Shown: positions 1,434-52,106 of the stretch, piece after piece
Layout: each line of letters begins with the position of its first letter
Numbering within the stretch: the first letter of the stretch is position 1
Source: Candidatus Bipolaricaulota bacterium
GTDB lineage: Bacteria; Patescibacteriota; Patescibacteriia; UBA11705; DATKZF01
Direction of reading: 5' to 3'
DNA: 64,000 nucleotides
Assembly: GCA_035528115.1 (NCBI GenBank)
Contig: DATKZF010000001.1
Span: 28,508-92,507 of the forward strand
Program-made: the position numbers and the translations under genes
The notes under the pieces: generated by a model
What the model was told of the DNA's origin: nothing
Seen by the model: the letters and a program-made list of their open reading frames with translations, nothing else
The model's database searches: none

Positions 1434-1435
1434 AT

Positions 1436-1553
1436 ATTGTTACGAATTACAAGATTCTAAGGCATATAGCTATAGATGAATGTAATTCGTAACAAATAAC
1501 CTGAAAGCTAAATAGAATATTGTAATTCGTAACAATGCAACAATGAAGCAATG
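1436..1553. repeat. MITE-like repeat, family 1 copy A: 21-bp terminal inverted repeats TTGTTACGAATTACAAGATTC / GAATATTGTAATTCGTAACAA, ending in CAATGAAGCAATG
   Basis: Inverted repeats read directly; the same unit recurs at 4401-4573, 5903-6110 and 42169-42390. Confidence 0.7.
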
Positions 1554-2978: not shown

Positions 2979-3911
2979 ATGAATTTCGTCGATCAAATTT
3001 ATAAAAAAATAGTCAATATTGAAATTCAGGGCGCGACGAGTGTCTGCGAGGCCGTGCTTTTGGCGCTGAAAAAAGAGTCGGCTGACAAAAAAATGAAAAC
3101 TTCCGCCGATTTGATAAGAAGTTTGCATCGGGTCGGCCATTATTTGAGCCGCGCCAGAGCGACCGAACCAATGGCCGAAAACGCGGTCAGGTTTGTCGAG
3201 CATCATTTGAGGCAAAATAGGGAAATGGAATTGAAAGAATTGAGAGTTTTAATAAAGCGCGGCATTGACGGATTTTTGTTTCGCTTGGCGACCAATAAAA
3301 AAAATATTCGCGATGTCGGCGAGCGGTTGATTGAAGACGAAGACAATGTCTTCACCCATTGCCATTCGTCAACGGTGATCGATGTTTTGGCCGAGGCGAA
3401 AAAGAACAAGAAGAAAATTCATGTTTTCAATACGGAAACCAGGCCTCTTTTTCAAGGCAGAATCACCTCAAAGGAATTGATTAAGAAAAAAATTGAAAAC
3501 ACGCAGGTCGTTGATTCGGCCGGACCGTTTTTCGTCAGTCAATACACAAAAGATTATGACATGGATGTTTTGTTGCTGGGTTGCGATGCTATTTCCCAAA
3601 GCGGTGACGCCGTGAATAAGATCGGTTCGCTCGGCTTGGCTTTGGCGGCCAAAGAAGCTGATATTCCCGTTTACATCGCCACGCAATCTTTAAAATTGGA
3701 TCTTGACGCCAAATATTTGAAAAATTTGGAAATTGAAAAGCGTCCAAGCAAGGAGATTTGGCCCGGCGCGCCGGAAGGCGTTGAAATAATCAATTACGCT
3801 TTTGATATTATTCCGGCCAAATACATTACCGGTTTCATTACCGAACTCGGCGTCCTAAAGCCGAAGCGTTTGGCCAAAAGCGTCAAAGCGGCTTACCCGT
3901 TTTTAATATGA
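2979..3911 (+). CDS. e2b2: Ribose-1,5-bisphosphate isomerase (eIF-2B alpha/beta/delta-like)
   Basis: eIF-2B-like family features; sits in an operon with form III RuBisCO and AMP phosphorylase, as in archaeal and CPR AMP salvage. Confidence 0.65.
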   Translation: MNFVDQIYKKIVNIEIQGATSVCEAVLLALKKESADKKMKTSADLIRSLHRVGHYLSRARATEPMAENAVRFVEHHLRQNREMELKELRVLIKRGIDGFLFRLATNKKNIRDVGERLIEDEDNVFTHCHSSTVIDVLAEAKKNKKKIHVFNTETRPLFQGRITSKELIKKKIENTQVVDSAGPFFVSQYTKDYDMDVLLLGCDAISQSGDAVNKIGSLGLALAAKEADIPVYIATQSLKLDLDAKYLKNLEIEKRPSKEIWPGAPEGVEIINYAFDIIPAKYITGFITELGVLKPKRLAKSVKAAYPFLI

Positions 3912-4354
3912 TTAAGTTGATCATTTGGGATTTGCTTGGCGTGCTCTATGAAAACGGGGAAGTCAATCCGTTTGCTCGGGCAATCTTAGCTGAATTTGAA
4001 AAAAAGAGTATTGAAAACGTTTGCGTCAGCAATCTTTCACCGGACACGGTTCATCGACTCGCTGAGCAATTAAATATCAAACATGTTATAATATGCCAAG
4101 AAGAAGGTTTTTCTAAGAAAGAAACGCCGGTTTACGAAAAGGTCTTGTCCGATTTTAAAGTAAAAGCAAATGAGGTTTTATTTATTGACGATAATGAGAG
4201 CAATTTGGCGGCCGCGCGAAAAATAGGTATAAAAACGGCCGTTTTTAGAGGAAAAAAGGGCAATGCGGATTTTGCGATTGATGATTTGGTAGATGTTTGG
4301 GGGATACTTGCACATATCATGGATCATGCCTGCCCGCCGACCTGTCCGCCGTAG
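3908..4354 (+). CDS. HAD-superfamily phosphatase (short); candidate nucleotidase or phosphoglycolate phosphatase
   Basis: DxD-type motif I (IIWDLLGVL) and motif IV (FIDDNESN); start overlaps e2b2 stop by 4 nt. Confidence 0.55.
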   Translation: MIKLIIWDLLGVLYENGEVNPFARAILAEFEKKSIENVCVSNLSPDTVHRLAEQLNIKHVIICQEEGFSKKETPVYEKVLSDFKVKANEVLFIDDNESNLAAARKIGIKTAVFRGKKGNADFAIDDLVDVWGILAHIMDHACPPTCPP

Positions 4355-4400
4355 CTTCACCGGAGGCGGAAGCTTAAGAGCGAAGGCGGGGATCACGTAT

Positions 4401-4573
4401 CATGGAGCATTGTTACGAATTAAAATCATCGAGTAGGCCGATTAATACATTTTACGAATTACATTCACTTATAGCTTTATGCCTAAGCATCTTGTAATAC
4501 GTAACAAATTACCTAAAAGCTAAATAGAATCTTGTAATTCGTAACAATGAAACAATGGAGCAATGGAGCAATC
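4401..4573. repeat. MITE-like repeat, family 1 copy B (~170 bp), ending CAATGGAGCAATGGAGCAATC, ~60 nt upstream of the rbcL start
   Basis: Near-identical to copy D (42169-42390); contains the TTGTAATTCGTAACAA core in both orientations. Confidence 0.7.
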
Positions 4574-5902: not shown

Positions 5903-6110
5903 GGATGTTACGAATTACAAGATTCACTTTGGCTTACAAACGGTTGTTACGAATTACAAGATTCTAAGGCATATTTTCTAGCTATAGATGAATGTAATTC
6001 GTAACAAATAACCTAAAAGCTAAACAGAATATTGTAATTCGTAACAGATAACCTGAAAGCTAAATAGAAGATTGTAATTCGTAACATAAACGTATTCGTA
6101 ATAAACGATT
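5903..6110. repeat. Nested or tandem cluster of family 1 MITE-like repeats (at least two units) between rbcL and the AMP phosphorylase gene
   Basis: Repeated TGTTACGAATTACAAGATTC and ATGTAATTCGTAACAAATAACCTNAAAGCTAAANAGAANATTGTAATTCGTAACA units. Confidence 0.7.
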
Positions 6111-6223
6111 AACCAAAGACCAAGGCTAGCTTATTAGCCGTAATGATTTGTAACGTATTCGTAACAAATATAACGCCAAGGCTAGCTAATTTAGAAGCAA
6201 TTATTTGTAACATGTAACGTATG
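6110..6223 (+). promoter_or_regulatory. Tandem family 2 leader element (two CCAAGGCTAGC...ATTTGTAAC units) running into the AMP phosphorylase ATG
   Basis: Same two-unit architecture found directly upstream of the VIT-family gene at 49191-49274. Confidence 0.5.
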
Positions 6224-16221: not shown

Positions 16222-16249
16222 AATCAGTTGCTGGATTTTAGCTTTTGTT

Positions 16250-16360
16250 GGAATGACAGGCCACAATGAGTCTGCATGGAATGGAAAGCCCGGATGAGTC
16301 TGAGAAAACTAATTATTATGCCGACCCTTTATCGTCATTCCCGCGAAAGCGGGAATCCAC
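16250..16360. repeat. MITE-like repeat, family 3 (~110 bp), copy 1: starts GGAATGACAGG, ends GTCATTCCCGCGAAAGCGGGAATCC hairpin
   Basis: Near-identical direct copy at 16725-16835; inverted partial copy at 16681-16738. Confidence 0.7.
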
Positions 16361-16388
16361 AAGAGTATCGTCGGCATCAGTATTGTTT

Positions 16389-16676
16389 ATGCGCTCCTAT
16401 TATGTTTACATGTTGGCCAATAAAAGAAATGGAACCCTTTACACAGGAGTTACCAATGATCTTGCCAGAAGACTCGATGAGCATAAGAACGATGTTAATG
16501 AATCATTTACGAAAAGGTATCAAGTCCACACATTGGTTTATTTTGAAGAACATGAGTGCATTGATGAAGCTATTTGGAGGGAGAAATGCATTAAAAAGTG
16601 GAGAAGAAAATGGAAGTTAGCATTAATTGAAAAAGAAAATCCTGATTGGAGGGACTTATCGAATGAATTAATTTAG
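16389..16676 (+). CDS. GIY-YIG nuclease-family small protein (second paralogue); ORF track start at 16266 lies inside the repeat
   Basis: YYVYMLANKRNGTLYTGVTNDLARRLDEH GIY-YIG core; first 31 codons of the track ORF are repeat-derived (duplicated at 16742). Confidence 0.65.
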   Translation: MRSYYVYMLANKRNGTLYTGVTNDLARRLDEHKNDVNESFTKRYQVHTLVYFEEHECIDEAIWREKCIKKWRRKWKLALIEKENPDWRDLSNELI

Positions 16677-16680
16677 GCCT

Positions 16681-16738
16681 GGATTCCCGCTTTCGCGGGA
16701 ATGACAGGTCAGGTTAGTCTGTGCGGGAATGACAGGCC
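16681..16738. repeat. Inverted partial copy of the family 3 repeat end (GGATTCCCGCTTTCGCGGGAATGACAGG)
   Basis: Reverse complement of the repeat terminus. Confidence 0.6.
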
Positions 16739-16835
16739 TAAATGAGCCTGCATGGAATGGAAAGCCCGGACGAGTCTGAGAAAACTAATTATTATGCCGA
16801 CCCTTTATCGTCATTCCCGCGAAAGCGGGAATCCA
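16725..16835. repeat. MITE-like repeat, family 3, copy 2 (direct repeat of 16250-16360)
   Basis: ~95% identical over ~110 bp; accounts for spurious ORF 16742..17047. Confidence 0.7.
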
Positions 16836-16871
16836 GAAAACACAGTTTGAAATTAAACCAAACAAATACTT

Positions 16872-34157: not shown

Positions 34158-35408
34158 ATGACTGAAATATTATCAAAATGCAAAATTAAAGAATTTGACC
34201 TGCTTTTAGCTGAAAAAAAGAACGTTTTGGCTCTCGGACCCGAATCGGCGGGTAATTTCTCCGTTTATATCAACGGAAAAGTTTATTATTGCTCAGATTT
34301 TGGCGATTTATTGGAGGAAGAGCGTTTTGATGTCTATAAAAAGGCTTTATTTGAGCTTATTGATAGAAATAACCTGATTCCCGATATTATTCGCGTTGAC
34401 CTTCATCCGGCCTATAAAACCTCAAAATTGGGCGAAGAATTGGCTCTTAAATTCAACTGCCGCCTGGAAAGAGTCCAGCACCATATAGCGCACGTTTATT
34501 CGGCTGTATTTGATCAATTTGCGGGCTACGAATCTACCAAAGATTTACCAATCCTGCGAAAACAAGGAGAATACGAATCTACGAATACTTTACGAATACG
34601 ACGAAAGCATGGAGATATGACTCTACCGACAAAATTTTTAGGCATAGCCTGCGACGGCACCGGCCTTGGGTTGGACGGCAAAATATGGGGAGGAGAAGTA
34701 TTTCAATATCAAATATCAAATATTAAAAATAAACTAACGCGAATCGGGCATCTTGAAAACCAGTTGCTGTGCGGAGGCGACGCGGCCATTAAAGAGCCGG
34801 CTCGAATGCTACTTTCCATACTTTTAAATATAAAAAAGCCGGCTGAGGTTTGGCCGATTTTTAGCGCATTTTACACCGAACAACAATTTGATACATTGGT
34901 AAAAATGCGTGAACAAAAATTTAATTCACTGGAGACTTCAAGCGCGGGTAGGGTGCTGGACGCGGTTTCGGTTTTGCTCGGATTTTGCGGCAATGAGAGA
35001 AAATACAAGCATGAGCCCATTGACTTGCTGGAGAAAAATTCAACGCAGCCTTTTGAGCTGGAGCCTGTGATAACTGAAGAACAAAGAAACAAAGAAACCG
35101 AGGAACAATGGAGCAATGGAGCAATGAAGCAATATGTCCTTAACACCTCTTATTTATTTGAATGGTTGCTTGAGAATTTAGATAAAGATAAGGGCAGACT
35201 GGCGGCGACAGTTCAAAAATATATTATCGAAGGCTTGATTGAGATAGCCAAAAGAACTGATCCGAATTTGCCGATTTATTTTAGCGGTGGAATGGCCAAT
35301 AATCGAATTATGAGTCAAATTGCCATGAATAATGGCTTAATCATGGCTGAAAACATCGATCGGGGAGACAATGCCTTGAGTTTGGGGCAGTTGACTTTAT
35401 TTTTGTAA
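34158..35408 (+). CDS. hypF: HypF-like carbamoyltransferase, Kae1/TsaD-like domain only (no acylphosphatase, Zn-finger or YrdC domains)
   Basis: QHHIAHV His motif, GIACDGTGLGLDGKIWGGE, C-terminal FSGGMANNRIM; in-frame insertion of the MITE terminal motif at 35103-35135. Confidence 0.6.
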   Translation: MTEILSKCKIKEFDLLLAEKKNVLALGPESAGNFSVYINGKVYYCSDFGDLLEEERFDVYKKALFELIDRNNLIPDIIRVDLHPAYKTSKLGEELALKFNCRLERVQHHIAHVYSAVFDQFAGYESTKDLPILRKQGEYESTNTLRIRRKHGDMTLPTKFLGIACDGTGLGLDGKIWGGEVFQYQISNIKNKLTRIGHLENQLLCGGDAAIKEPARMLLSILLNIKKPAEVWPIFSAFYTEQQFDTLVKMREQKFNSLETSSAGRVLDAVSVLLGFCGNERKYKHEPIDLLEKNSTQPFELEPVITEEQRNKETEEQWSNGAMKQYVLNTSYLFEWLLENLDKDKGRLAATVQKYIIEGLIEIAKRTDPNLPIYFSGGMANNRIMSQIAMNNGLIMAENIDRGDNALSLGQLTLFL

Positions 35409-35444
35409 AATTATAATATTCGCTTTCAACAAAGGAGGGCGATC

Positions 35445-35681
35445 ATGAAGTTTCTGGCGGCATTGCTGGCCATGCTCACCATATATTCCGGATGGCAGGC
35501 GACCAAAAACATCATATTTCTTTTCGGCGCGGTCAAGGACCGTGAAAGGTATGAAGAACTTCGAAGTACTGTCCATGGTCCGTTCGCATTGGTGGAGTCC
35601 TACGTCATTTTGCCAGTCAGCGTTTGTCTGATATTTTTCTTTATGACGCTTTTGGCGGCGGGAATCGCTCTGGAAACATAG
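35445..35681 (+). CDS. Small membrane protein (hypothetical)
   Basis: AAAGGAGGG Shine-Dalgarno-like site; two TM helices. Confidence 0.4.
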   Translation: MKFLAALLAMLTIYSGWQATKNIIFLFGAVKDRERYEELRSTVHGPFALVESYVILPVSVCLIFFFMTLLAAGIALET

Positions 35682-35901
35682 CCCGTTCGGATCATTTCGC
35701 GCGGGTTTTAAATTTGACAGATATTGGTAAATTAATTAAGTTTAAATACGACGGGTGACGCGCGTAAAGTTCAAGAGTTTGGACCCGACGTCACCTGAAT
35801 TAGCATCACCTGATGCCACCGACGTGCCGCGCGTCACCCGTCATCTTCTCTTGCTCCTCCCCACGTGGCGGAGCATTCTTTTTTAAAGAAAAAATCAAGG
35901 A

Positions 35902-35930
35902 TTGACTTAATTATGCAAAATTGCTTAAAT
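35902..35930 (+). promoter_or_regulatory. Putative promoter TTGACT-N17-TTAAAT for ORF 35966, followed by AGAGGAGGA Shine-Dalgarno-like site
   Basis: Read directly. Confidence 0.35.
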
Positions 35931-35965
35931 ATTATATTAACGGGTGAAAACAGAGGAGGACGGTC

Positions 35966-36223
35966 ATGACCTTGAATGAGGTTTATCTTAAATACCAGGT
36001 GGAAAAAGAAATTAGGGAATTCGCTGATTGTTCGCGAGCCTGGCTGCGCAAGGTTGGCTTGGCCATCAAAAGAGTGGTCGCGGCAATCATGAAGGAACGT
36101 CGCATCAGTTTTGAGGAAGTAAAGCGGCTACCAGGCAATACGATTCTGGGGCCAATCTCCGAAGCGGCGGCCAACGAGTTCTTCGCCTTGCTGGCCACGG
36201 GTAGCGAGTGGCGGAACAAATGA
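35966..36223 (+). CDS. Hypothetical protein (85 aa)
   Basis: Strong Shine-Dalgarno-like site plus downstream terminator. Confidence 0.45.
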   Translation: MTLNEVYLKYQVEKEIREFADCSRAWLRKVGLAIKRVVAAIMKERRISFEEVKRLPGNTILGPISEAAANEFFALLATGSEWRNK

Positions 36224-36226
36224 TTC

Positions 36227-36258
36227 AACCCGCGGATGAACGTATCTTGCGGGTTTTT
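36227..36258. terminator. Bidirectional intrinsic terminator (ACCCGC...GCGGGT + TTTTT)
   Basis: Read directly. Confidence 0.6.
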
Positions 36259-36261
36259 AAA

Positions 36262-37122
36262 TTAGTGATTAATAACTTTTCGCATTAATTCATTTACGAA
36301 CTGAAAATTACCATCGCCGGTCAAAACAACGTCAAAATTTTCGTCAAACGCTTTTTTCATCGCCGTGTTTTCAATATTAAGAAAACCCAAAGAAATCATG
36401 TTTTTATAATAAAATCCTTTGACCATGCCCGGATCTCCGAGAGAGTCCCCGAGCAAAATGACATTGGGACGGTTTTTAATCTTTTCAAAAACCGACGGAA
36501 TTTCTTTCAAGACCGTTTCGTCTTTATTTAAACTGTGAATGATCGGCTCGAGCGGACGCAAGGCTTTGCCGTTTTGATCCCACTCGAATTTATTGGTCAC
36601 CTAATAAATATTCGGGAAATTCAATTTATTTTTTTCGAAGAATATGGGAATGGCGTCTCCGCAGCCGCTGGCGGACATTATAATCAAAGGAATGTTTTTT
36701 TCATTGAGCAGAGTCAGAAATTCCATCGCGCCGTCTCGAAACTTCAAATGTCCGTTGGCCACGATATCCGCCAAATCGTTTTTTGACAGTCCGGATTCAA
36801 TCAGCAGACGGTCGTGTTTGTCCCACCATTGCCGCATTGCCGTTTTCTTTTCGTTGATTGAAATACTTAGATCAAGTTCAATCGGATGATAATGATCGAA
36901 CAGTGCGTGAGCTTTGGCCGCGTAATCTTCGGTCAGATGTTTGCCGTCGCGCAGCATTGAAATAATGGAAGGAGTTTTGACCCCGTCAATTGTGCCATAA
37001 GTCAGGGTGCCGTCGAAGTCCGATAAAAAGTGTAATCCATTCGCGCCATCCATTTGAATGGATTTTTTTAATTGTTCGAATTTTGTGGGATTTTGAATGG
37101 ATATTTGCATAAAATTTAACAA
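36262..37122 (-). pseudogene. UMPH-1/NT5C3-like pyrimidine 5'-nucleotidase (HAD) interrupted by a single in-frame TAG at 36601-36603
   Basis: ORFs 36601..37122 (motif I FLSDFDGTLT) and 36262..36600 (motif IV VILLGDSLGD) are contiguous in one frame, separated only by the TAG; together ~286 aa with one HAD domain. Confidence 0.6.
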
Positions 37123-38084
37123 ATCCTCGGAATCAATTTTCCTCTCGGCTCTTCGATTTGTCTTTCCGATCCAAGTTTTGTTTTCAAAAAAACGCCTTCG
37201 CCTTCAAAGCATTTGCCAATAATTTTGGCCTCGGGATTGAATTCTTGGAGCTTTTTTAATGCTTCATCAGTGTTTTGAGGACTGACCGCGGCGATAAAGC
37301 GGCCTTCGGAGGGCAATGTAAAAAGCTCAATGCCTAAAAGTTCGGTCAAGGCAAAAACTTCTTTTTTATAAGGCAATTTGTCTTCATCCAAAACAATTTT
37401 TATTTTTGATTTGGCCGCGATTTCATTCATGTTGGCGGCCACGCCGCCGCGAGTCGGATCTTTGGCCGCGTTTAGAAGATGCCCGACCGCCTGAAACTCG
37501 GCCAAGAGCGGCCGGCAGTCGCTTATTAAATCGGTTTGATAGTCAAAGCGATAGGCGAGAAGCGTCAGTCCATGTTCGCCCAAATCTCCGGAAGTTATGA
37601 TGTTATCGCCGGCTTTGGCTCCGCCATTGTCAATCACTCTTTCAACCAAGCCCACGCCGGCCGTGGTTATTTCAATTTTATCGATTTTGCCTTTTTCCAT
37701 CACTTTGGTGTCACCGGTGACAATGGGAATATTCGTTAACTTTGAAATTTTATCAATCGATTCGGCGATTTTGAATAAGTCTTTTTTAGAAAAACCTTCT
37801 TCAAGCACAATGCTCAGCGATAATCCCAGCGGTTTGGCGCCCATCACCGCCAAGTCGTTTATCGTGCCGCAAGCGGCGATTTTGCCAATGTCGCCGCCCG
37901 GAAAAAATATCGGATCCACAATGAAAGCGTCAGTGGTGAAAACCAGCTTTTTGTCTCCCAAATCGAAAATCGCCGCGTCATCTTCGGTGTTGGTCCAGTT
38001 TGTTTTCAGATTAATGATTTTCCTGAGCTCGCGGATAAGTTCATTGTTTTTGAATCCGCCGCCGCCGTGGTCAAGGTCAATCAT
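37116..38084 (-). CDS. hypE: Hydrogenase maturation protein HypE (PurM superfamily), C-terminal PRIC motif
   Basis: TTDAFIVDPIFFPGGDIGKIAACGTINDLAVMGAKP and terminal ...GKLIPRIC. Confidence 0.8.
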   Translation of the reverse strand: MIDLDHGGGGFKNNELIRELRKIINLKTNWTNTEDDAAIFDLGDKKLVFTTDAFIVDPIFFPGGDIGKIAACGTINDLAVMGAKPLGLSLSIVLEEGFSKKDLFKIAESIDKISKLTNIPIVTGDTKVMEKGKIDKIEITTAGVGLVERVIDNGGAKAGDNIITSGDLGEHGLTLLAYRFDYQTDLISDCRPLLAEFQAVGHLLNAAKDPTRGGVAANMNEIAAKSKIKIVLDEDKLPYKKEVFALTELLGIELFTLPSEGRFIAAVSPQNTDEALKKLQEFNPEAKIIGKCFEGEGVFLKTKLGSERQIEEPRGKLIPRIC

Positions 38085-38093
38085 ATTAATAAT

Positions 38094-38141
38094 TTCTACC
38101 CCACTTTAGTGGGTGAATACAAAGGCCCACTAAAGTGGGGT
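38094..38141. other. Perfect 18-bp stem-loop (CTACCCCACTTTAGTGGG...CCCACTAAAGTGGGGTAG) at the hypD/hypE junction
   Basis: Read directly; overlaps the last hypD codons and the intergenic gap. Confidence 0.5.
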
Positions 38142-39170
38142 AGAATTTTTATATTTATATTCAATTTGGCAAGATCCCTCAACCGACACCATACAAGCCC
38201 CTTGCGGGTTTTCCGGTGTGCAAATTTTAGCGAAAAGGGGACAGTCAGCCGGTTTGGCCAGACCTTGCAGTATTTTACCACAAATGCAGGCGCTTGGCCT
38301 ATATTCGGTGTTTTTTCTTATATTTTCAATTAAATCGTGATGAATAAACTCGGTATCCTGATTTTGAAATTCCTTTCTAATTTTTAAGCCTGAATTTGGT
38401 ATGTTTCCGAGGCCGCGCCAGCGCGCATCTGAAATTTCAAAGACTTCATTGATTAATTTTCGCGCTTCAATATTGCCTTCGGGTCGTACGACGCGCGTAT
38501 ATTCGTTCTTGAGTTCATTTTTTCCGCTGACAATCATTTCAAGCAACCACTGAATCGAAAGCAAGACGTCTTCGGGTTCAAATCCTGAAATCACTTGCGG
38601 CACATTAAATTGCTTAAAAGGCTCCTCTCCGATAATGGCCGCAACATGGCCCGGATCAAGGAATCCGTCGATTTGAATATTAGGGCTTGAAAGTAAAGCG
38701 GCCATGGCCGGCGGGAACAGTTTGTGAGCTGAATATACCTTTAAACCTTGCTTGATCGCCCAGGCTGACATGGGTGTGGTGGTCTCAAATCCTATGCCAA
38801 AAAACGCCAAATCATTTATTTGTTCAGCGAGTTTTACAGCGTCGAGAGTGGAGTAAACCACTTCGATTTTTTTGCCTTGTTGCCTTAATTTTTCAAGGCT
38901 TGAATTTGTCCCGGGCAAGGATAGAGCGTCGCCGTAAACGGCGATGGGCACATCGTTTTCCGCCAGGCCGATGACAACATCAATGTCAGTCTGATCGGTG
39001 ACGCAGATCGGACAGCCGGGCCCGGAAATAAGCTCAACGTTTGGCGGAAGCAAACTTTTCAAACCGTACTTGGCCACGGTTTGCGAATGCGTGCCGCAGA
39101 GTTCCATCAGTGTGACCGGGCGGTTGATTTGAGAAGCGAGTGTGTTAATTTTATTGATGATTTTTTGCAT
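38130..39170 (-). CDS. hypD: Hydrogenase maturation protein HypD
   Basis: GPGCPICV motif, CGxH-type N-terminal region, C-terminal Cys cluster; 346 aa. Confidence 0.8.
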   Translation of the reverse strand: MQKIINKINTLASQINRPVTLMELCGTHSQTVAKYGLKSLLPPNVELISGPGCPICVTDQTDIDVVIGLAENDVPIAVYGDALSLPGTNSSLEKLRQQGKKIEVVYSTLDAVKLAEQINDLAFFGIGFETTTPMSAWAIKQGLKVYSAHKLFPPAMAALLSSPNIQIDGFLDPGHVAAIIGEEPFKQFNVPQVISGFEPEDVLLSIQWLLEMIVSGKNELKNEYTRVVRPEGNIEARKLINEVFEISDARWRGLGNIPNSGLKIRKEFQNQDTEFIHHDLIENIRKNTEYRPSACICGKILQGLAKPADCPLFAKICTPENPQGACMVSVEGSCQIEYKYKNSTPL

Positions 39171-39283
39171 GAATGTTATTTAATCGCGAATCTATTGAAT
39201 TTTTTATAGTAAATGTTATAATAAATAAAACTTACTGCAGGCGCTGTGTCAATACATGGAGTTATTGTATTATAAGGGGGATA

Positions 39284-39517
39284 ATGATGGCTGGGTATGG
39301 GTTTAGGCCTGGTGTGGCTGGAAGTGGTGGGTCGCCGATAGACTGGGAAGAGAGGGCGAGACAGAGGAAGATGTCACAGGCCGGCCACATCATAGTTAAG
39401 GCCGTCTTTGCCAGAGGAGGCACTGATGAGGATTGGATGAGAATTTTCCATGACCGAGGCCTGGTAGATCGCCTGGCAGAAATGATCATTCAAAAGCCCG
39501 AGCCCACCTCCAAGTAG
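39284..39517 (+). CDS. Hypothetical small protein (~77 aa) in a GC-rich patch between hypD and hypC
   Basis: AAGGGGGA Shine-Dalgarno-like site before ATGATGG; local GC ~55%. Confidence 0.3.
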   Translation: MMAGYGFRPGVAGSGGSPIDWEERARQRKMSQAGHIIVKAVFARGGTDEDWMRIFHDRGLVDRLAEMIIQKPEPTSK

Positions 39518-39552
39518 GGGCAGCATATCTTGACTCTTGAAGTTCCCGCGCG

Positions 39553-39759
39553 TCATTCGCGCCGGAGCTTTTTAATTTCATCAGCTTCGTTTTTATCAAC
39601 AATTTCAATGGCAAACCCCGCGTGCACAATCACAAAATCTCCCGGATTTGGTGTTATCAGGCTTATATTAACTCTTTTTTTCAGGCCGTTAAAATCAACC
39701 AGCGCGGTTTGGCTTGTTTTATCCATTGATTCAATTTTTCCGGGAATGGCTAAGCACAT
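39553..39759 (-). CDS. hypC: Hydrogenase maturation protein HypC (HupF/HypC family)
   Basis: N-terminal MCLAIP; 68 aa. Confidence 0.8.
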   Translation of the reverse strand: MCLAIPGKIESMDKTSQTALVDFNGLKKRVNISLITPNPGDFVIVHAGFAIEIVDKNEADEIKKLRRE

Positions 39760-39898
39760 AATTTTAAGAGGGATTAAGGTTGGTTTATATGTCCTTTTGT
39801 TTCATGATTCATGCTCCATGACGTTATGTTGATAACTTTTGATGATAATTGTTTAAGATGCTATAATTTTAACAGAAACATTATTAACTTCAAATTTT

Positions 39899-40222
39899 AT
39901 GAATGGTGACACCACTCCGGCTCCATCAAGCGAGTCTTCAAAAATGCAGTTAAAAGTTGAGGTTCCTTGGAGAGAAAAGATTTCTCGTCTGTTTATTTTT
40001 AGATTTCTCTGGGTATTCGTGCTCGTTTGGGTGCTTTATGTTTGGATGATTTGGATCGGCTTGGTAAATTTTGTTCATTTTTGGTACATGTTGATTTTAG
40101 GCAAAAAACATCAAGCCATGTGGAAGAAAAACGTCAGATTTTTCAAAACCATGACCGAATGGAATTCGTATTTATCGAATTTAACTGATGAAAGGCCGAA
40201 ATTCATTGGCGATAAGGTTTAA
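39899..40222 (+). CDS. Hypothetical membrane protein
   Basis: ORF; two TM helices. Confidence 0.35.
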   Translation: MNGDTTPAPSSESSKMQLKVEVPWREKISRLFIFRFLWVFVLVWVLYVWMIWIGLVNFVHFWYMLILGKKHQAMWKKNVRFFKTMTEWNSYLSNLTDERPKFIGDKV

Positions 40223-40270
40223 TCGACGAAATAAAAAATCAGCGATGAAAAATACGCTGATTTTTTATAT

Positions 40271-41857
40271 TTACATTTGAAGCAGATTGGTTCCGGTCAT
40301 TTCCGGAGCCGGGGGAATGCCGACTTGCGCTAAAATTGTGGGCGCCACGTCAGAGAGAATGCCCAGCGGGCTGTTTAAGGAAAGATCCCCGTTTTCACCG
40401 GTTTGAATGGTTTGACCGGCGTGTTTATTGCTCACGGCGATGAATGGCACCGGATAAATGCTGTGCTCTTTGTCTATTTTGCCGGTTTGAAGATTAACCA
40501 ATTCTTCGGCGTTGCCATGATCTCCGACAATAAAGGCCATTCCTTGCTTGGCCAAAATCGCGGAAATGACTTTTTCCAAACATGAGTCAACTGCGTTAAC
40601 GGCTGAGACTGTGGCTTGCAAATTGCCCGTATGGCCGACCATGTCGGGGTTGGCGTAATTAATGGCCATGAATTGATATTTATCCGAAGCCAAGGCTTTT
40701 AATATTTCATCGGTCACTATATTGGCGGACATTTCAGGCTGTTTATCATAACTGTCAACCAGCGGCGACGGAATGAGCATTCTGTCTTCTCCGGGGAATT
40801 TTTCTTCGATTTGTCCGTTCAAAAAATAAGTGACATGCGCGTATTTTTCCGTTTCCGCGATATGGAGCTGTTTGAAACCGTTGTCGCTGAAGACTTTGGC
40901 CAAGGGATTGGCAATGGTTTGCCGCGGATAGGAGACTTTAACCGGCAAACCCGTTTTGTAATCCGTCAAAGTGACGAAGGTCAGTCCGTCAATGAAATTT
41001 CGTTGGAATTTATCAAAATTCGGTTCAACGAAAGCTTGCGTCAATTGCACGGCTCGATCAGCTCTGAAATTGAAGAAAATCACCGCGTCTTCTTCGGAGA
41101 CCATGGCGAGCGGCTGGTTTTTTTTGTCCACCACAGCGCAAGGCGGGAATTCTTCGTCGAATATTTGATTTTGATAAGACTCTTTTAACGTTTTTAACGG
41201 ATCGGTGGTGGAAATGGCTCCTTTGCCTTCGGCAATGGCCGAATAAGCCTGGCTTGTCTTATCCCAATTTTTATTTCTGTCCATGCCGAAAATTCTCCCA
41301 GTGATCGAAGCGACCTCTCCGCATTTTTGTTTTTTGCAAAATTTCATGATGTCTTCCAAAAATCCCGCGCCGGAGTCTCTGGCAGAGTCGCGGCCGTCAA
41401 GAAACAGATGTAAAAAAGTTTGTTTTTTCAATTTGTTTTCTTTGCAAAGCTTTATCAGCGCTTCCAAATGCCGCTGGTGCGCGTGCACGCCTCCGTTGCC
41501 GAGCAAGCCGATCAAATGAATTTTCGATTTGTTTTGAACGGCTTTTTGAACGGCCGCAAGCAGATTTTCATTTTTGAAAAAATTCCCGTCTTCGATTTCT
41601 TTATCGATTCTGGGCAAGCTTTGATAATGAAGAACGCCGGAGCCGATATTCAAATGGCCCACTTCGGAATTGCCGACTTCACCCCAAGGCAGTCCCACGT
41701 TCACGCCGGACGCTTCAAGCAGCATGGTCGGATAAGATCCGATGAGTTTTTTGTAAAACGGAGCCGAGCTGAGGCTGATGGCGTTCGATTGGCCGGGAGT
41801 GGCAATGCCAAAGCCGTCCAGCACAATCAAAACAACGGGATTGTATGATAACTGCAT
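40271..41857 (-). CDS. gpmI: 2,3-bisphosphoglycerate-independent phosphoglycerate mutase
   Basis: VVLIVLDGFG and GNSEVGHLNIGSG motifs; 528 aa. Confidence 0.85.
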   Translation of the reverse strand: MQLSYNPVVLIVLDGFGIATPGQSNAISLSSAPFYKKLIGSYPTMLLEASGVNVGLPWGEVGNSEVGHLNIGSGVLHYQSLPRIDKEIEDGNFFKNENLLAAVQKAVQNKSKIHLIGLLGNGGVHAHQRHLEALIKLCKENKLKKQTFLHLFLDGRDSARDSGAGFLEDIMKFCKKQKCGEVASITGRIFGMDRNKNWDKTSQAYSAIAEGKGAISTTDPLKTLKESYQNQIFDEEFPPCAVVDKKNQPLAMVSEEDAVIFFNFRADRAVQLTQAFVEPNFDKFQRNFIDGLTFVTLTDYKTGLPVKVSYPRQTIANPLAKVFSDNGFKQLHIAETEKYAHVTYFLNGQIEEKFPGEDRMLIPSPLVDSYDKQPEMSANIVTDEILKALASDKYQFMAINYANPDMVGHTGNLQATVSAVNAVDSCLEKVISAILAKQGMAFIVGDHGNAEELVNLQTGKIDKEHSIYPVPFIAVSNKHAGQTIQTGENGDLSLNSPLGILSDVAPTILAQVGIPPAPEMTGTNLLQM

Positions 41858-42095: not shown

Positions 42096-42168
42096 AAGTA
42101 TTTTTATTAATTCAATTAAATTATACTTGATTTGAGTTATTAAATCAAAAAGTTAAGTGGTATAATGT

Positions 42169-42390
42169 TCATGGAGCCAATGGAGCATTGTTACTAATTA
42201 CAATCATCCAGTAGGCCGATTGATATATAATTACGAATTACAAAAAGCTGATTAGCTTTAAACGATTCTTACTAATTACTTTCACCTATATCCTTAAGCC
42301 TGAGAATGTTGTAATTCGAAACAAATAACCTAGAAGCTAAATGGAAGATTGTAATTGGTAACAATAAAACAATGAAGCAATGAAGCAATC
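42169..42390. repeat. MITE-like repeat, family 1 copy D (~220 bp); its terminal CAATGAAGCAATGAAGCAATC supplies the start codon of the next gene
   Basis: Collinear with copy B (4401-4573). Confidence 0.7.
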
Positions 42391-42685
42391 TTTTCTCCAA
42401 ATATATATGCAAAAAGAAAAAGAAAACGAAAAAAAATCCATCAAGCTTGAAGTGCTTGAGAAATTGTCCGCGCTTATTATCGCGGGCTTTGGTTTGGTCG
42501 CGGCCTTGGCTTGGAATGACGCCATTAAGGCGTTGTTCAATAAGTTTTTTCCGGCGCCTTCCGGCAATCTGGTCGCCGGATTGATTTACGCGGTCGCCAT
42601 AACCGCGATTGTGGTAATTGTCACCATCCAATTCGGCCGGATGATCAGGCGCGCCAAAAACGTGGTTGATAAATTGGACAAATAA
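42380..42685 (+). CDS. Small membrane protein (hypothetical); ATG lies inside the repeat terminus
   Basis: ORF; two TM helices. Confidence 0.4.
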   Translation: MKQSFLQIYMQKEKENEKKSIKLEVLEKLSALIIAGFGLVAALAWNDAIKALFNKFFPAPSGNLVAGLIYAVAITAIVVIVTIQFGRMIRRAKNVVDKLDK

Positions 42686-49047: not shown

Positions 49048-49190
49048 ACAACCGTTTATGGTTAGCGGGAGTTTTCCAATTTAAAATCAAAAATAAAAAC
49101 AGGCAATTGAAAGGTTGCTTTATTTTTCCCAAAGGGATTCTGTTGGGATAAATTTGTGACCATTGGTAACGAAACAAGAAATACTACAAC

Positions 49191-49274
49191 CAAGGATAGC
49201 TTAATAGACGTGGTAATTTGTAACTAATATAACGCCAAGGCTAGCCAATCGGCGGCAATCATTTGTAACGTATG
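49191..49274 (+). promoter_or_regulatory. Tandem family 2 leader element (two CCAAGG[CA]TAGC...ATTTGTAAC units) ending at the VIT gene ATG
   Basis: Aligns unit for unit with 6110-6223 upstream of the AMP phosphorylase gene, including AATATAACGCCAAGGCTAGC and TTTGTAACGTATG. Confidence 0.5.
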
Positions 49275-51540: not shown

Positions 51541-51818
51541 ACTTATCCGTTTTTTCAATCTTGACTTCGGGTCGGTTTTGATGTATATTGTATTTTGTAA
51601 TCGTTATGCATTGGCCGGCATAGCTTCCGCCTTCGCTCCTCGCTTTGCTCAGAGCTTCGGCGGACAGGTCCGCCTACGTTGAAACTTCGGCGGACAGGCA
51701 GTGGTTTTGCCCGCTCGACTCAGTGGAGCTTCGCGAGCGGGTCCGCTCAGCAGCGAATCTGCGTGAGCGGATAAACCATTGGTTGTATTGCCCTTTGTAA
51801 TTAATCACTATTTATCGT

Positions 51819-51893: not shown

Positions 51894-52106
51894 CTCTAAA
51901 TTTTGAAAAAGAGTATAACGTGGGTTCCCACCTGCGCTCCTCGCTCCGCTCGTAGGAGTTACGCCTGCCTTCGTCCCTCGACAAGCTCAGGGCTTCCGCC
52001 TACGCCAATGCTTCGGCGGACAGGTCGGCTGGCAGGCCATTTCGCCCTTGATTTGTTTTGAAATAAGGTGTATAATTAAAAACGTTGAATATTTAATATA
52101 GAAAAT

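Follow-up and report, generated by a model that had tools for sequence, protein, structure and literature searches.

A 64,000-nucleotide (nt) stretch of contig DATKZF010000001.1 (assembly GCA_035528115.1, positions 28,508 to 92,507), here called the window, carries several copies of a small palindromic repeat that resembles miniature inverted-repeat transposable elements (MITEs) and repetitive extragenic palindromes (REPs). Some copies trail a short tandem array of ATG-containing octanucleotides from their right-hand end, and octamers of the same kind are read in frame inside a gene that encodes a HypF-like protein. We favour, with a probability of about one half, an explanation in which the array is the non-coding tail of a recently spread element and the octamer block in the HypF-like gene arose by exchange of sequence between such tails and a loop-encoding tract of that gene. 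We infer both the direction and the mechanism of this exchange.

The element is non-coding, 120-220 bp in length and built from units of about 40 bp with a 14-nt core, TGTAATTCGTAACA. Sixteen cores were found in the window where 0.43 would be expected; they are spaced at about 40 bp and lie on the minus strand in the left halves of the elements and on the plus strand in the right halves. Terminal inverted repeats are present, the left end CATTGTTACGAATTACA pairing with the right end TGTAATTCGTAACAATG, and the predicted fold is a long imperfect hairpin (-36.7 kcal/mol, z = -2.2, for the copy e2; -53.3 kcal/mol, z = -4.55, for e4). Five copies are known from the 64-kb window and the 1.1 kb of sequence upstream of it. 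Four of these, e1 to e4, are in the window and can be aligned with one another (Table 1); the fifth is about 1.1 kb upstream, on a short-read contig (L261) from the window's own genome. Both ends of that contig fall inside copies of the element, as is to be expected because the element is multi-copy. Units of the CATGGAG type occur on both flanks of e2 and e4 and not of e1 or e3. When the window was compared with Rfam 15 only tRNAs reached the gathering score, the elements being unmatched even at E <= 1, and there was no match either in a metagenome pattern scan for two cores 24-27 nt apart or in a distant blastn search of a plasmid library with e2.

The octamer tail forms the right-hand end of three of the five copies (e1, e2 and e4) and consists of three to four tandem units of (A/G)(A/G)CAATG(A/G). 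In these three the inverted repeat is extended to CATTG...CAATG and followed by the tail; e3 and the upstream copy have neither. The tail unit corresponds to the final eight bases of the inverted repeat, with ...GTAACAATG passing into AACAATGN and then AGCAATGN, and the order of the variants is common to all three tails: AACAATGN (AAC) units come first and AGCAATGN (AGC) units second. This shared order argues that the tail was inherited from a common ancestor copy and was not remade at each site. The 23-mer AACAATGGAGCAATGGAGCAATG occurs without mismatch at 35104-35126, in the HypF-like gene, and with one to three mismatches at 1531, 4543/4551 and 42368, always on the plus strand; there are six matches in the window against 0.00 expected from 100 shuffles, and the degenerate two-unit pattern ATGRAGCAATGRAGCAA gave five against 0.01. 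Tandem Repeats Finder reported period-8 arrays at 1531-1553, 4545-4572, 35102-35133 and 42360-42389. An initial annotation of this DNA had described the motif as the terminus of a repeated element lying upstream of rbcL, a beta-CASP gene and the gene that we identify as encoding a DUF5654 protein; its positions proved accurate, the strings are present far above chance, and the motif is indeed the end of a multi-copy element.

The four copies in the window are recent insertions, since their sites are empty in the closest relative. That genome, GCA_049319825.1, is the closest with long contigs; the two share 85% identity in RuBisCO, and a neighbour-joining tree places their HypF-like proteins as sisters. 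All four element sites are syntenic there but element-free: the spacer is 92 nt long at the beta-CASP gene (155 nt in the window, with e1), 61 nt at rbcL (281 nt, with e2), 121 nt at the AMP-phosphorylase-like gene (319 nt, with e3) and 90 nt at the DUF5654 gene (about 285-312 nt, with e4). Two of the sites are also element-free in a second relative, L260. Among 261 loci the core TGTAATTCGTAACA was present in none from another genome, its sole match being L261.

The HypF-like protein consists of the Kae1-like C-terminal domains only, without the acylphosphatase, zinc-finger and YrdC parts, and has more than 1,400 homologues, mostly in Patescibacteria. Its open reading frame (ORF) reads ...EEQWSNGAMKQY... 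in frame through the octamer array. The in-frame string that had been reported from this ORF is therefore present, but the array is longer than was thought, amounting to seven units (35080-35135). The CAATG block within it (35104-35127) is 24 nt long and makes up three units and eight codons. At the protein level the loop contains two blocks, EQRNKETE, which is like the KQKDIKTE and KLKNKKTE of relatives, and EQWSNGAM (35103-35126), which corresponds to the CAATG block. Describing the stretch as poorly conserved was apt: in the family alignment the loop is hypervariable between two conserved strands, and in an AlphaFold2 model made with that alignment the mean predicted confidence (pLDDT) of 87 falls to 51 for residues 311-320, between the strands at 305-309 and 324-328.

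Orthologues have tandem repeats at the same place. The loop DNA has a period of 8 nt in the window (28 residues), in L002 and L254 (20 residues each), in L003 (36 residues) and, weakly, in L253 (20 residues); the period is 7 nt in L258 (25 residues) and 9 nt in L256 (19 residues), and the sister sequence L128 shows none (13 residues). Quite different repeat-derived inserts occupy this loop in other lineages. Such variety at one position across orthologues marks the site as a permissive hot spot for short tandem repeats. The octamer-bearing loops, at 20, 28 and 36 residues, differ by exact multiples of eight residues, which is 24 nt or three units, and these three-unit steps are attributable to selection for the reading frame.

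Three observations lead us to favour exchange over local expansion of the loop's own repeats. The HypF block is identical to the e2 tail (4551-4572) over 22 nt, including the change from AAC to AGC units, with one mismatch over the 23-nt query. In local alignment with the elements the loop segment scores 45, where other gene segments score about 20. Elements and block alike are missing from the sister genome (orthologue P0007). The sequence of events could then have been as follows. The palindromic element spread recently into intergenic sites with the octamer array trailing from its right end, and a coding octamer tract that already existed in the HypF loop took up sequence by ectopic copying between the tail arrays and the loop. 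Gene conversion, or template switching during replication, might have carried this out, anchored on the conserved AA(A/G)CAATAT codons (Lys-Gln-Tyr). Only gains or losses of three units would survive in the ORF, since these keep the frame, and the CAATGG variant would survive there because it holds no stop codon in any frame.

Several findings weigh against this explanation. No element body, as judged by the 14-nt cores, lies within the HypF-like ORF. One orthologue, P0003, carries KQWNNGTMKQY, whose codons run through the same octamers in an identical register (AAACAATGGAACAATGGAACAATGAAACAATATG), and it clusters in the tree with P0005 and P0002, not with the window protein. The units of P0003 match its own Lys-Gln-Tyr codons (AAACAATAT) and those of the window match AAGCAATAT; such lineage-matched units would fit in-place expansion in each lineage without a donor. 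On the side of the element, only five copies are known, and no clean target-site duplication was seen, the intergenic DNA of relatives having diverged too far for the junctions to be defined. The window and its 1.1-kb upstream sequence, the metagenome pattern scan and the plasmid library yielded no related autonomous element. The one further long assembly matches at 100% identity over 15.7 kb and gives no strain-level comparison of copy number. Taken with the loop repeats of the orthologues, the absence of an element body and the P0003 block leave in doubt the proposal of the initial annotation that the element can insert, or leave footprints, in coding sequence, of which the in-frame string itself stands. 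The same annotation had asked whether the residues EQWSNGAMKQ are a lineage-specific insertion. They are missing from 118 of 120 homologues, QW[SN]NG being confined to the window protein and P0003; the presence of the block in the non-sister P0003, a protein known from a 3.2-kb contig, goes part of the way towards the ancestral origin that had been named as the contrary outcome.

The main rival to exchange is an origin within the loop itself, by slippage or duplication of the AA(A/G)CAATAT codons and A-rich octamers, the likeness to the tails being convergence on a stop-free variant. We regard this as rather unlikely, yet a serious contender. It would account for the 7-, 8- or 9-nt repeats at one spot in the orthologues and for the 24-nt steps in length, as well as for the block in P0003 and the agreement of the units with the Lys-Gln-Tyr codons of each lineage. 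The choice of units is narrow, too: when stop-codon constraints are enumerated, only seven of the 16 possible AACAATNN units are stop-free in tandem (six specific units being actually translated). Arrays built from different octamers are, moreover, frequent in the DNA of bacteria and viruses. What tells against a local origin is the 22-nt identity with the e2 tail, down to the AAC-to-AGC change, the joint absence of block and elements from the sister genome, and the rarity of QW[SN]NG among the homologues.

The abundance of octamer arrays elsewhere raises another possibility. When one genome per species was scanned for two and a half CAATGRAR units, at least 120 loci (L006-L125) were found in many phyla, compared with an estimated 17 or so in random sequence. 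Among the matches listed, an inverted CATTG array lies within 150 nt upstream in 24 of 131 CAATG arrays and downstream in one; such pairs have spacers of 1-121 nt and occur in Patescibacteria, Nitrospirota, Saprospiraceae, Acidobacteriota and others. Their polarity, (CATTGNNN)n-spacer-(NNNCAATG)n, is that of the element ends in the window, CATTGTTAC...GTAACAATG. CAATG arrays, some of them joined to unrelated palindromes, could mark an uncharacterised and widespread DNA transaction, such as binding of a transposase or a recombinase to arrayed sites, or the templated addition of repeats to CAAT ends, which could write 24-nt in-frame blocks into tolerant loops and so explain the block in two non-sister HypF-like genes. 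We give this a small chance of being correct. The notion that CAATG octamers are uniquely special was rejected, the control GTAACRAR being commoner in viral contigs (101 loci, against 15 for CAATGRAR and 8 for ACTAGRAR), where GTAAC arrays show the opposite polarity (4 versus 16). Since control octamers are widespread, we do not treat CAATG arrays as one homologous family. Nor are they obviously hypermutable, as orthologous arrays in related species keep their unit number (L021/L022, L047/L101 and L025/L038/L103). The idea that arrays generally follow a separate hairpin was dropped, because upstream and downstream folding energies differ only marginally (p = 0.058), and string searches of the literature on octamer arrays gave nothing relevant. 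As an observation in its own right, locus L061 (1620-1690) has the palindrome GGATCCCCGTTTTCACGGGGATGAC followed by four CAATG octamers, in frame (LDPRFHGDDNNGTMKQWNNE, 60 nt), in a loop of a PIG-V-like mannosyltransferase; in-frame residence is therefore not unique to the window. A similar combination of palindrome and tail is intergenic in L105.

A different proposal gives the tails a function, as leaders or start modules that supply initiation codons or short upstream ORFs (MKQ-stop, ATGA overlaps) and set the translation of the downstream gene in a host that makes little use of Shine-Dalgarno sequences. The right half of all five copies does face the start of a plus-strand gene 17-135 nt away, e4 lies just past a conserved -10 box, so that its tail ATGs would be the first AUGs met after a stable leader hairpin, 42380 stands in an open frame that runs into the gene, and Shine-Dalgarno use is low (5 of 40 genes in the window). 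We nevertheless consider the proposal quite improbable. The orientation of five copies out of five reaches only p = 0.06, two copies have no tail, e1 is upstream of its promoter's -10 box, and seven of the eight tail ATGs are dead ends. There is no bias of orientation in 131 comparable arrays from other genomes, 91 of them intergenic: 44 face the downstream gene and 37 do not. The portable translation-start module put forward in the initial annotation finds no support in these points or in the start at 42407, to which we now turn.

Because the unit is an octamer, consecutive ATGs of a tail stand in different reading frames. The three tails hold eight ATGs, and their ORFs comprise 3, 34 and 4 codons in e1, 12, 23 and 31 codons in e2, where none reaches rbcL, and 3 and 101 codons in e4 (from 42372 and 42380). 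Only 42380 runs into a gene, the other seven being limited to 3-34 codons; one in eight is about the level of chance. Most are dead ends because the CAATGAAR units carry TGA while the CAATGGAG units are open: tandem CAATGGAG can be read through in all three frames, and in (CAATGAAR)n TGA closes every one of them. As had been pointed out, the longest DUF5654 ORF does begin at 42380, the second and last ATG of the e4 tail, giving a protein of 101 amino acids with MKQSFLQIY at its front; that this codon is used was an assumption. NCBI models the identical gene from 42407 with 92 amino acids, the closest syntenic orthologue is element-free and starts MKKIFEQPESLKLEV, in alignment with 42407, and the homologues have short hydrophilic N-termini unlike MKQSFLQIY. 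Neither position has a recognisable ribosome-binding site, because this genome hardly uses Shine-Dalgarno sequences. The codon at 42380 may or may not be used, and at best would provide an accidental extension of nine residues: on insertion of e4 the last tail ATG would have come to lie by chance in frame, 27 nt upstream of the ancestral start, and tail ATGs in general would be a by-product of the octamer sequence.

The copies e1 and e4 also differ in their placement relative to putative promoters, e1 being upstream and e4 downstream of a -10 box. The e1 tail ends directly at the conserved extended -10 sequence TGCTATAAT (the relative has TGTTATAAT), and the beta-CASP promoter would therefore not transcribe it. 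The conserved box 3 nt before e4 would instead place that copy within the 5' leader of the DUF5654 mRNA, where it would be transcribed as a structured leader, if the boxes are working promoters. Promoter and terminator consensus scans gave counts equal to those of shuffled sequence, and a reading of the element as a portable promoter was dropped, because the GTAACA-18-TAGAAT match in the 40-bp unit varies among copies.

True transposition of a whole element into the HypF loop, with later excision or decay leaving the tail as a footprint, is very unlikely: the in-frame palindrome and tail in the mannosyltransferase loop of another Patescibacteria-like genome and the other repeat-derived inserts in loops of the HypF-like family offer precedents, but no core or inverted-repeat remnant lies beside the block, the surrounding tract is an older octamer array common to the orthologues, a palindrome of 120-220 nt would have to insert and then exit precisely, and the first HypF loop does not resemble the element body significantly (local alignment score 22 against 19.7 +/- 2.4).

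The sequences described here are variants of two known kinds of repeat, a MITE/REP-like palindrome that bears a tandem-repeat tail and a repeat in the coding sequence of a disordered loop. Like the Correia elements of Neisseria and the REPs and bacterial interspersed mosaic elements (BIMEs) of enterobacteria, the element in the window is small, non-coding, intergenic and multi-copy with inverted repeats; it too has filled and empty sites between relatives, a long hairpin and a link to assembly breaks. It differs in having a body of tandem 40-bp units and, in three copies, an octamer tail outside the inverted repeat, no target-site duplication having been seen and no partner transposase being known. 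Rickettsia palindromic elements, reportedly described by Ogata et al. in 2000, are repeats that lie in frame inside protein-coding genes. The HypF block is likewise repeat-family sequence in frame at an apparently permissive surface position without destruction of the protein, but the HypF ORF holds only a 24-nt block of tail type and no palindromic element, and in the orthologues the site was already tandemly repeated. Heptanucleotide short tandemly repeated repetitive (STRR) sequences are found in heterocystous cyanobacteria, and simple-sequence repeats occur in coding regions generally. These share with the octamers a unit of 7-8 nt scattered through the genome and, the unit not being a multiple of three, coding change in three-unit steps; the arrays here are very short (3-7 units) and keep their unit number in related species. 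In the phase-variable contingency loci of Haemophilus influenzae, the lic genes contain 5'-CAAT-3' repeats with alternative ATGs. The tails of the window are also non-multiple-of-three repeats at the 5' ends of genes with ATGs in different frames, but they have three or four units and no visible length variation, most of their ATGs are closed by TGA, and they lie in leader or promoter DNA and not inside an ORF. The closest architecture is that of Geobacter metallireducens, where four tandem octanucleotides ('class 1', GTTGCTYN) form 24 pairs, the two members being on opposite strands and a variable distance apart. Insertion sequences lie at a fixed distance from them, and the sites have been proposed to bind IHF/HU and to act as landmarks for the insertion of ISGme8/9 (PMC2700814). 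The reverse complement, NRAGCAAC, is nearly the window unit GRAGCAAT, and both comprise about four tandem units, often in inverted pairs in intergenic DNA; in the window no binding protein or insertion sequence was seen, and in the copies a single inverted unit on the left faces three to four on the right.

If our reading is right, ATG-rich repeat tails can create spurious N-terminal extensions in gene predictions, as in the 101 instead of 92 amino acids of the DUF5654 gene, and the HypF-like gene would be a clean example of a non-multiple-of-three repeat that survives in a gene by virtue of a disordered loop, three-unit steps and a stop-free unit. Several families of repeats extend into gene ends and loops in small, streamlined genomes of the Patescibacteria type. 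The octamer-array architecture of the Geobacter kind recurs across phyla and may deserve a dedicated survey, in which the polarity of the pairs is a possible lead.

Table 1. Positions in the window of the element copies, their tails and the associated genes
Feature	Position	Strand	Description
Element e1	1434..1553	+	Between a pseudouridine synthase gene and the beta-CASP gene (ATG 1589)
e1 tail	1531-1553	+	AACAATGC AACAATGA AGCAATG; adjoins conserved extended -10 TGCTATAAT (1554-1562)
Element e2	4401..4573	+	Upstream of type III RuBisCO (ATG 4636); left unit CATGGAG, then CATTGTTAC
e2 tail	4543-4573	+	AACAATGA AACAATGG AGCAATGG AGCAATC
Element e3	5904..6086	+	Between rbcL and the AMP-phosphorylase-like gene; five perfect cores, no CAATG tail
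HypF C-terminal (Kae1-like) domain protein	34158..35408	+	416 amino acids; Pfam HypF_C residues 19-118, HypF_C_2 residues 162-411
In-frame octamer tract	35080..35135	+	AACAAAGA AACAAAGA AACCGAGG AACAATGG AGCAATGG AGCAATGA AGCAATAT; residues 308-326, EQRNKETEEQWSNGAMKQY
Extended -10 box	42158..42166	+	TGGTATAAT; e4 begins 3 nt further on; the relative without the element has TGATATAAT
Element e4	42170-42390	+	Upstream of the DUF5654 gene
e4 body	42170..42359	+	Left direct units CATGGAGC CAATGGAG (42170-42185); four 14-nt cores
e4 inverted repeats	from 42186 (left)		Left starts CATTGTTAC; right ends GTAACAAT
e4 tail	42360..42390	+	AACAATAA AACAATGA AGCAATGA AGCAATC; ATGs at 42372 (MKQ-stop) and 42380
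DUF5654 gene	42407..42685	+	NCBI start, 92 amino acids, MQKEKEN...

The HypF-like gene lies near hypC, hypD and hypE, a neighbourhood that is kept across the clade (34158-41857 in the window; L003, L126, L253 and L254). A metagenome scan for loci encoding the HypF-like protein gave no confirmed match. The protein has a second loop of low confidence, between the Pfam domains (residues 126-153, 34527-34637), which contains a 45-nt tandem repeat, YESTKDLPILRKQGE / YESTNTLRIRRKHGD. TACGAAT heptamers number 19 in the window; four are in this repeat, and 14 of the rest are in elements. The loop was considered as a degraded element body and set aside, its local alignment score of 22 not being significant against shuffles. 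L126 shares the DUF5654 gene with the window, but L003, L253 and L254 do not have it at that position. The named close homologues of the HypF-like, DUF5654 and RuBisCO proteins come from Patescibacteria or candidate phyla radiation (CPR) lineages, and given these homologues the NCBI label 'Candidatus Bipolaricaulota bacterium' looks doubtful.

Other repeats of the window also reach the ends of genes. A family of the form CCAAGGCTAGC...ATTTGTAACGTAT, at 6120-6222 and 49190-49273, has its end exactly at the ATG of the AMP-phosphorylase-like ORF (6221) in the one case and of a VIT1-like ORF (49272) in the other, and is a closer case of a repeat end meeting a start codon than are the CAATG tails. 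A GC-rich family at 4328-4373, 51639-51698 and 51992-52037 overlaps the 3' end of a HAD-like ORF (3908-4354). The HAD-like protein ends ...HACPPTCPP-stop and its relatives end ...LNKLNT-stop or ...MKIISH-stop, so that the repeat supplies the last nine or so codons and the stop. TATAAT-like boxes often stand 8-15 nt before the ATG (for example at ORFs 30978, 31581 and 34158), a short distance that suggests that mRNAs of this organism are leaderless or have very short leaders. Finally, in the region 16276-16836 perfect GTCATTCCCGCGAAAGCGGGAATCC palindromes stand on both sides of a small GIY-YIG-like ORF (16276-16620), and a flanking segment of 125 nt is duplicated (16238-16362 and 16714-16838).

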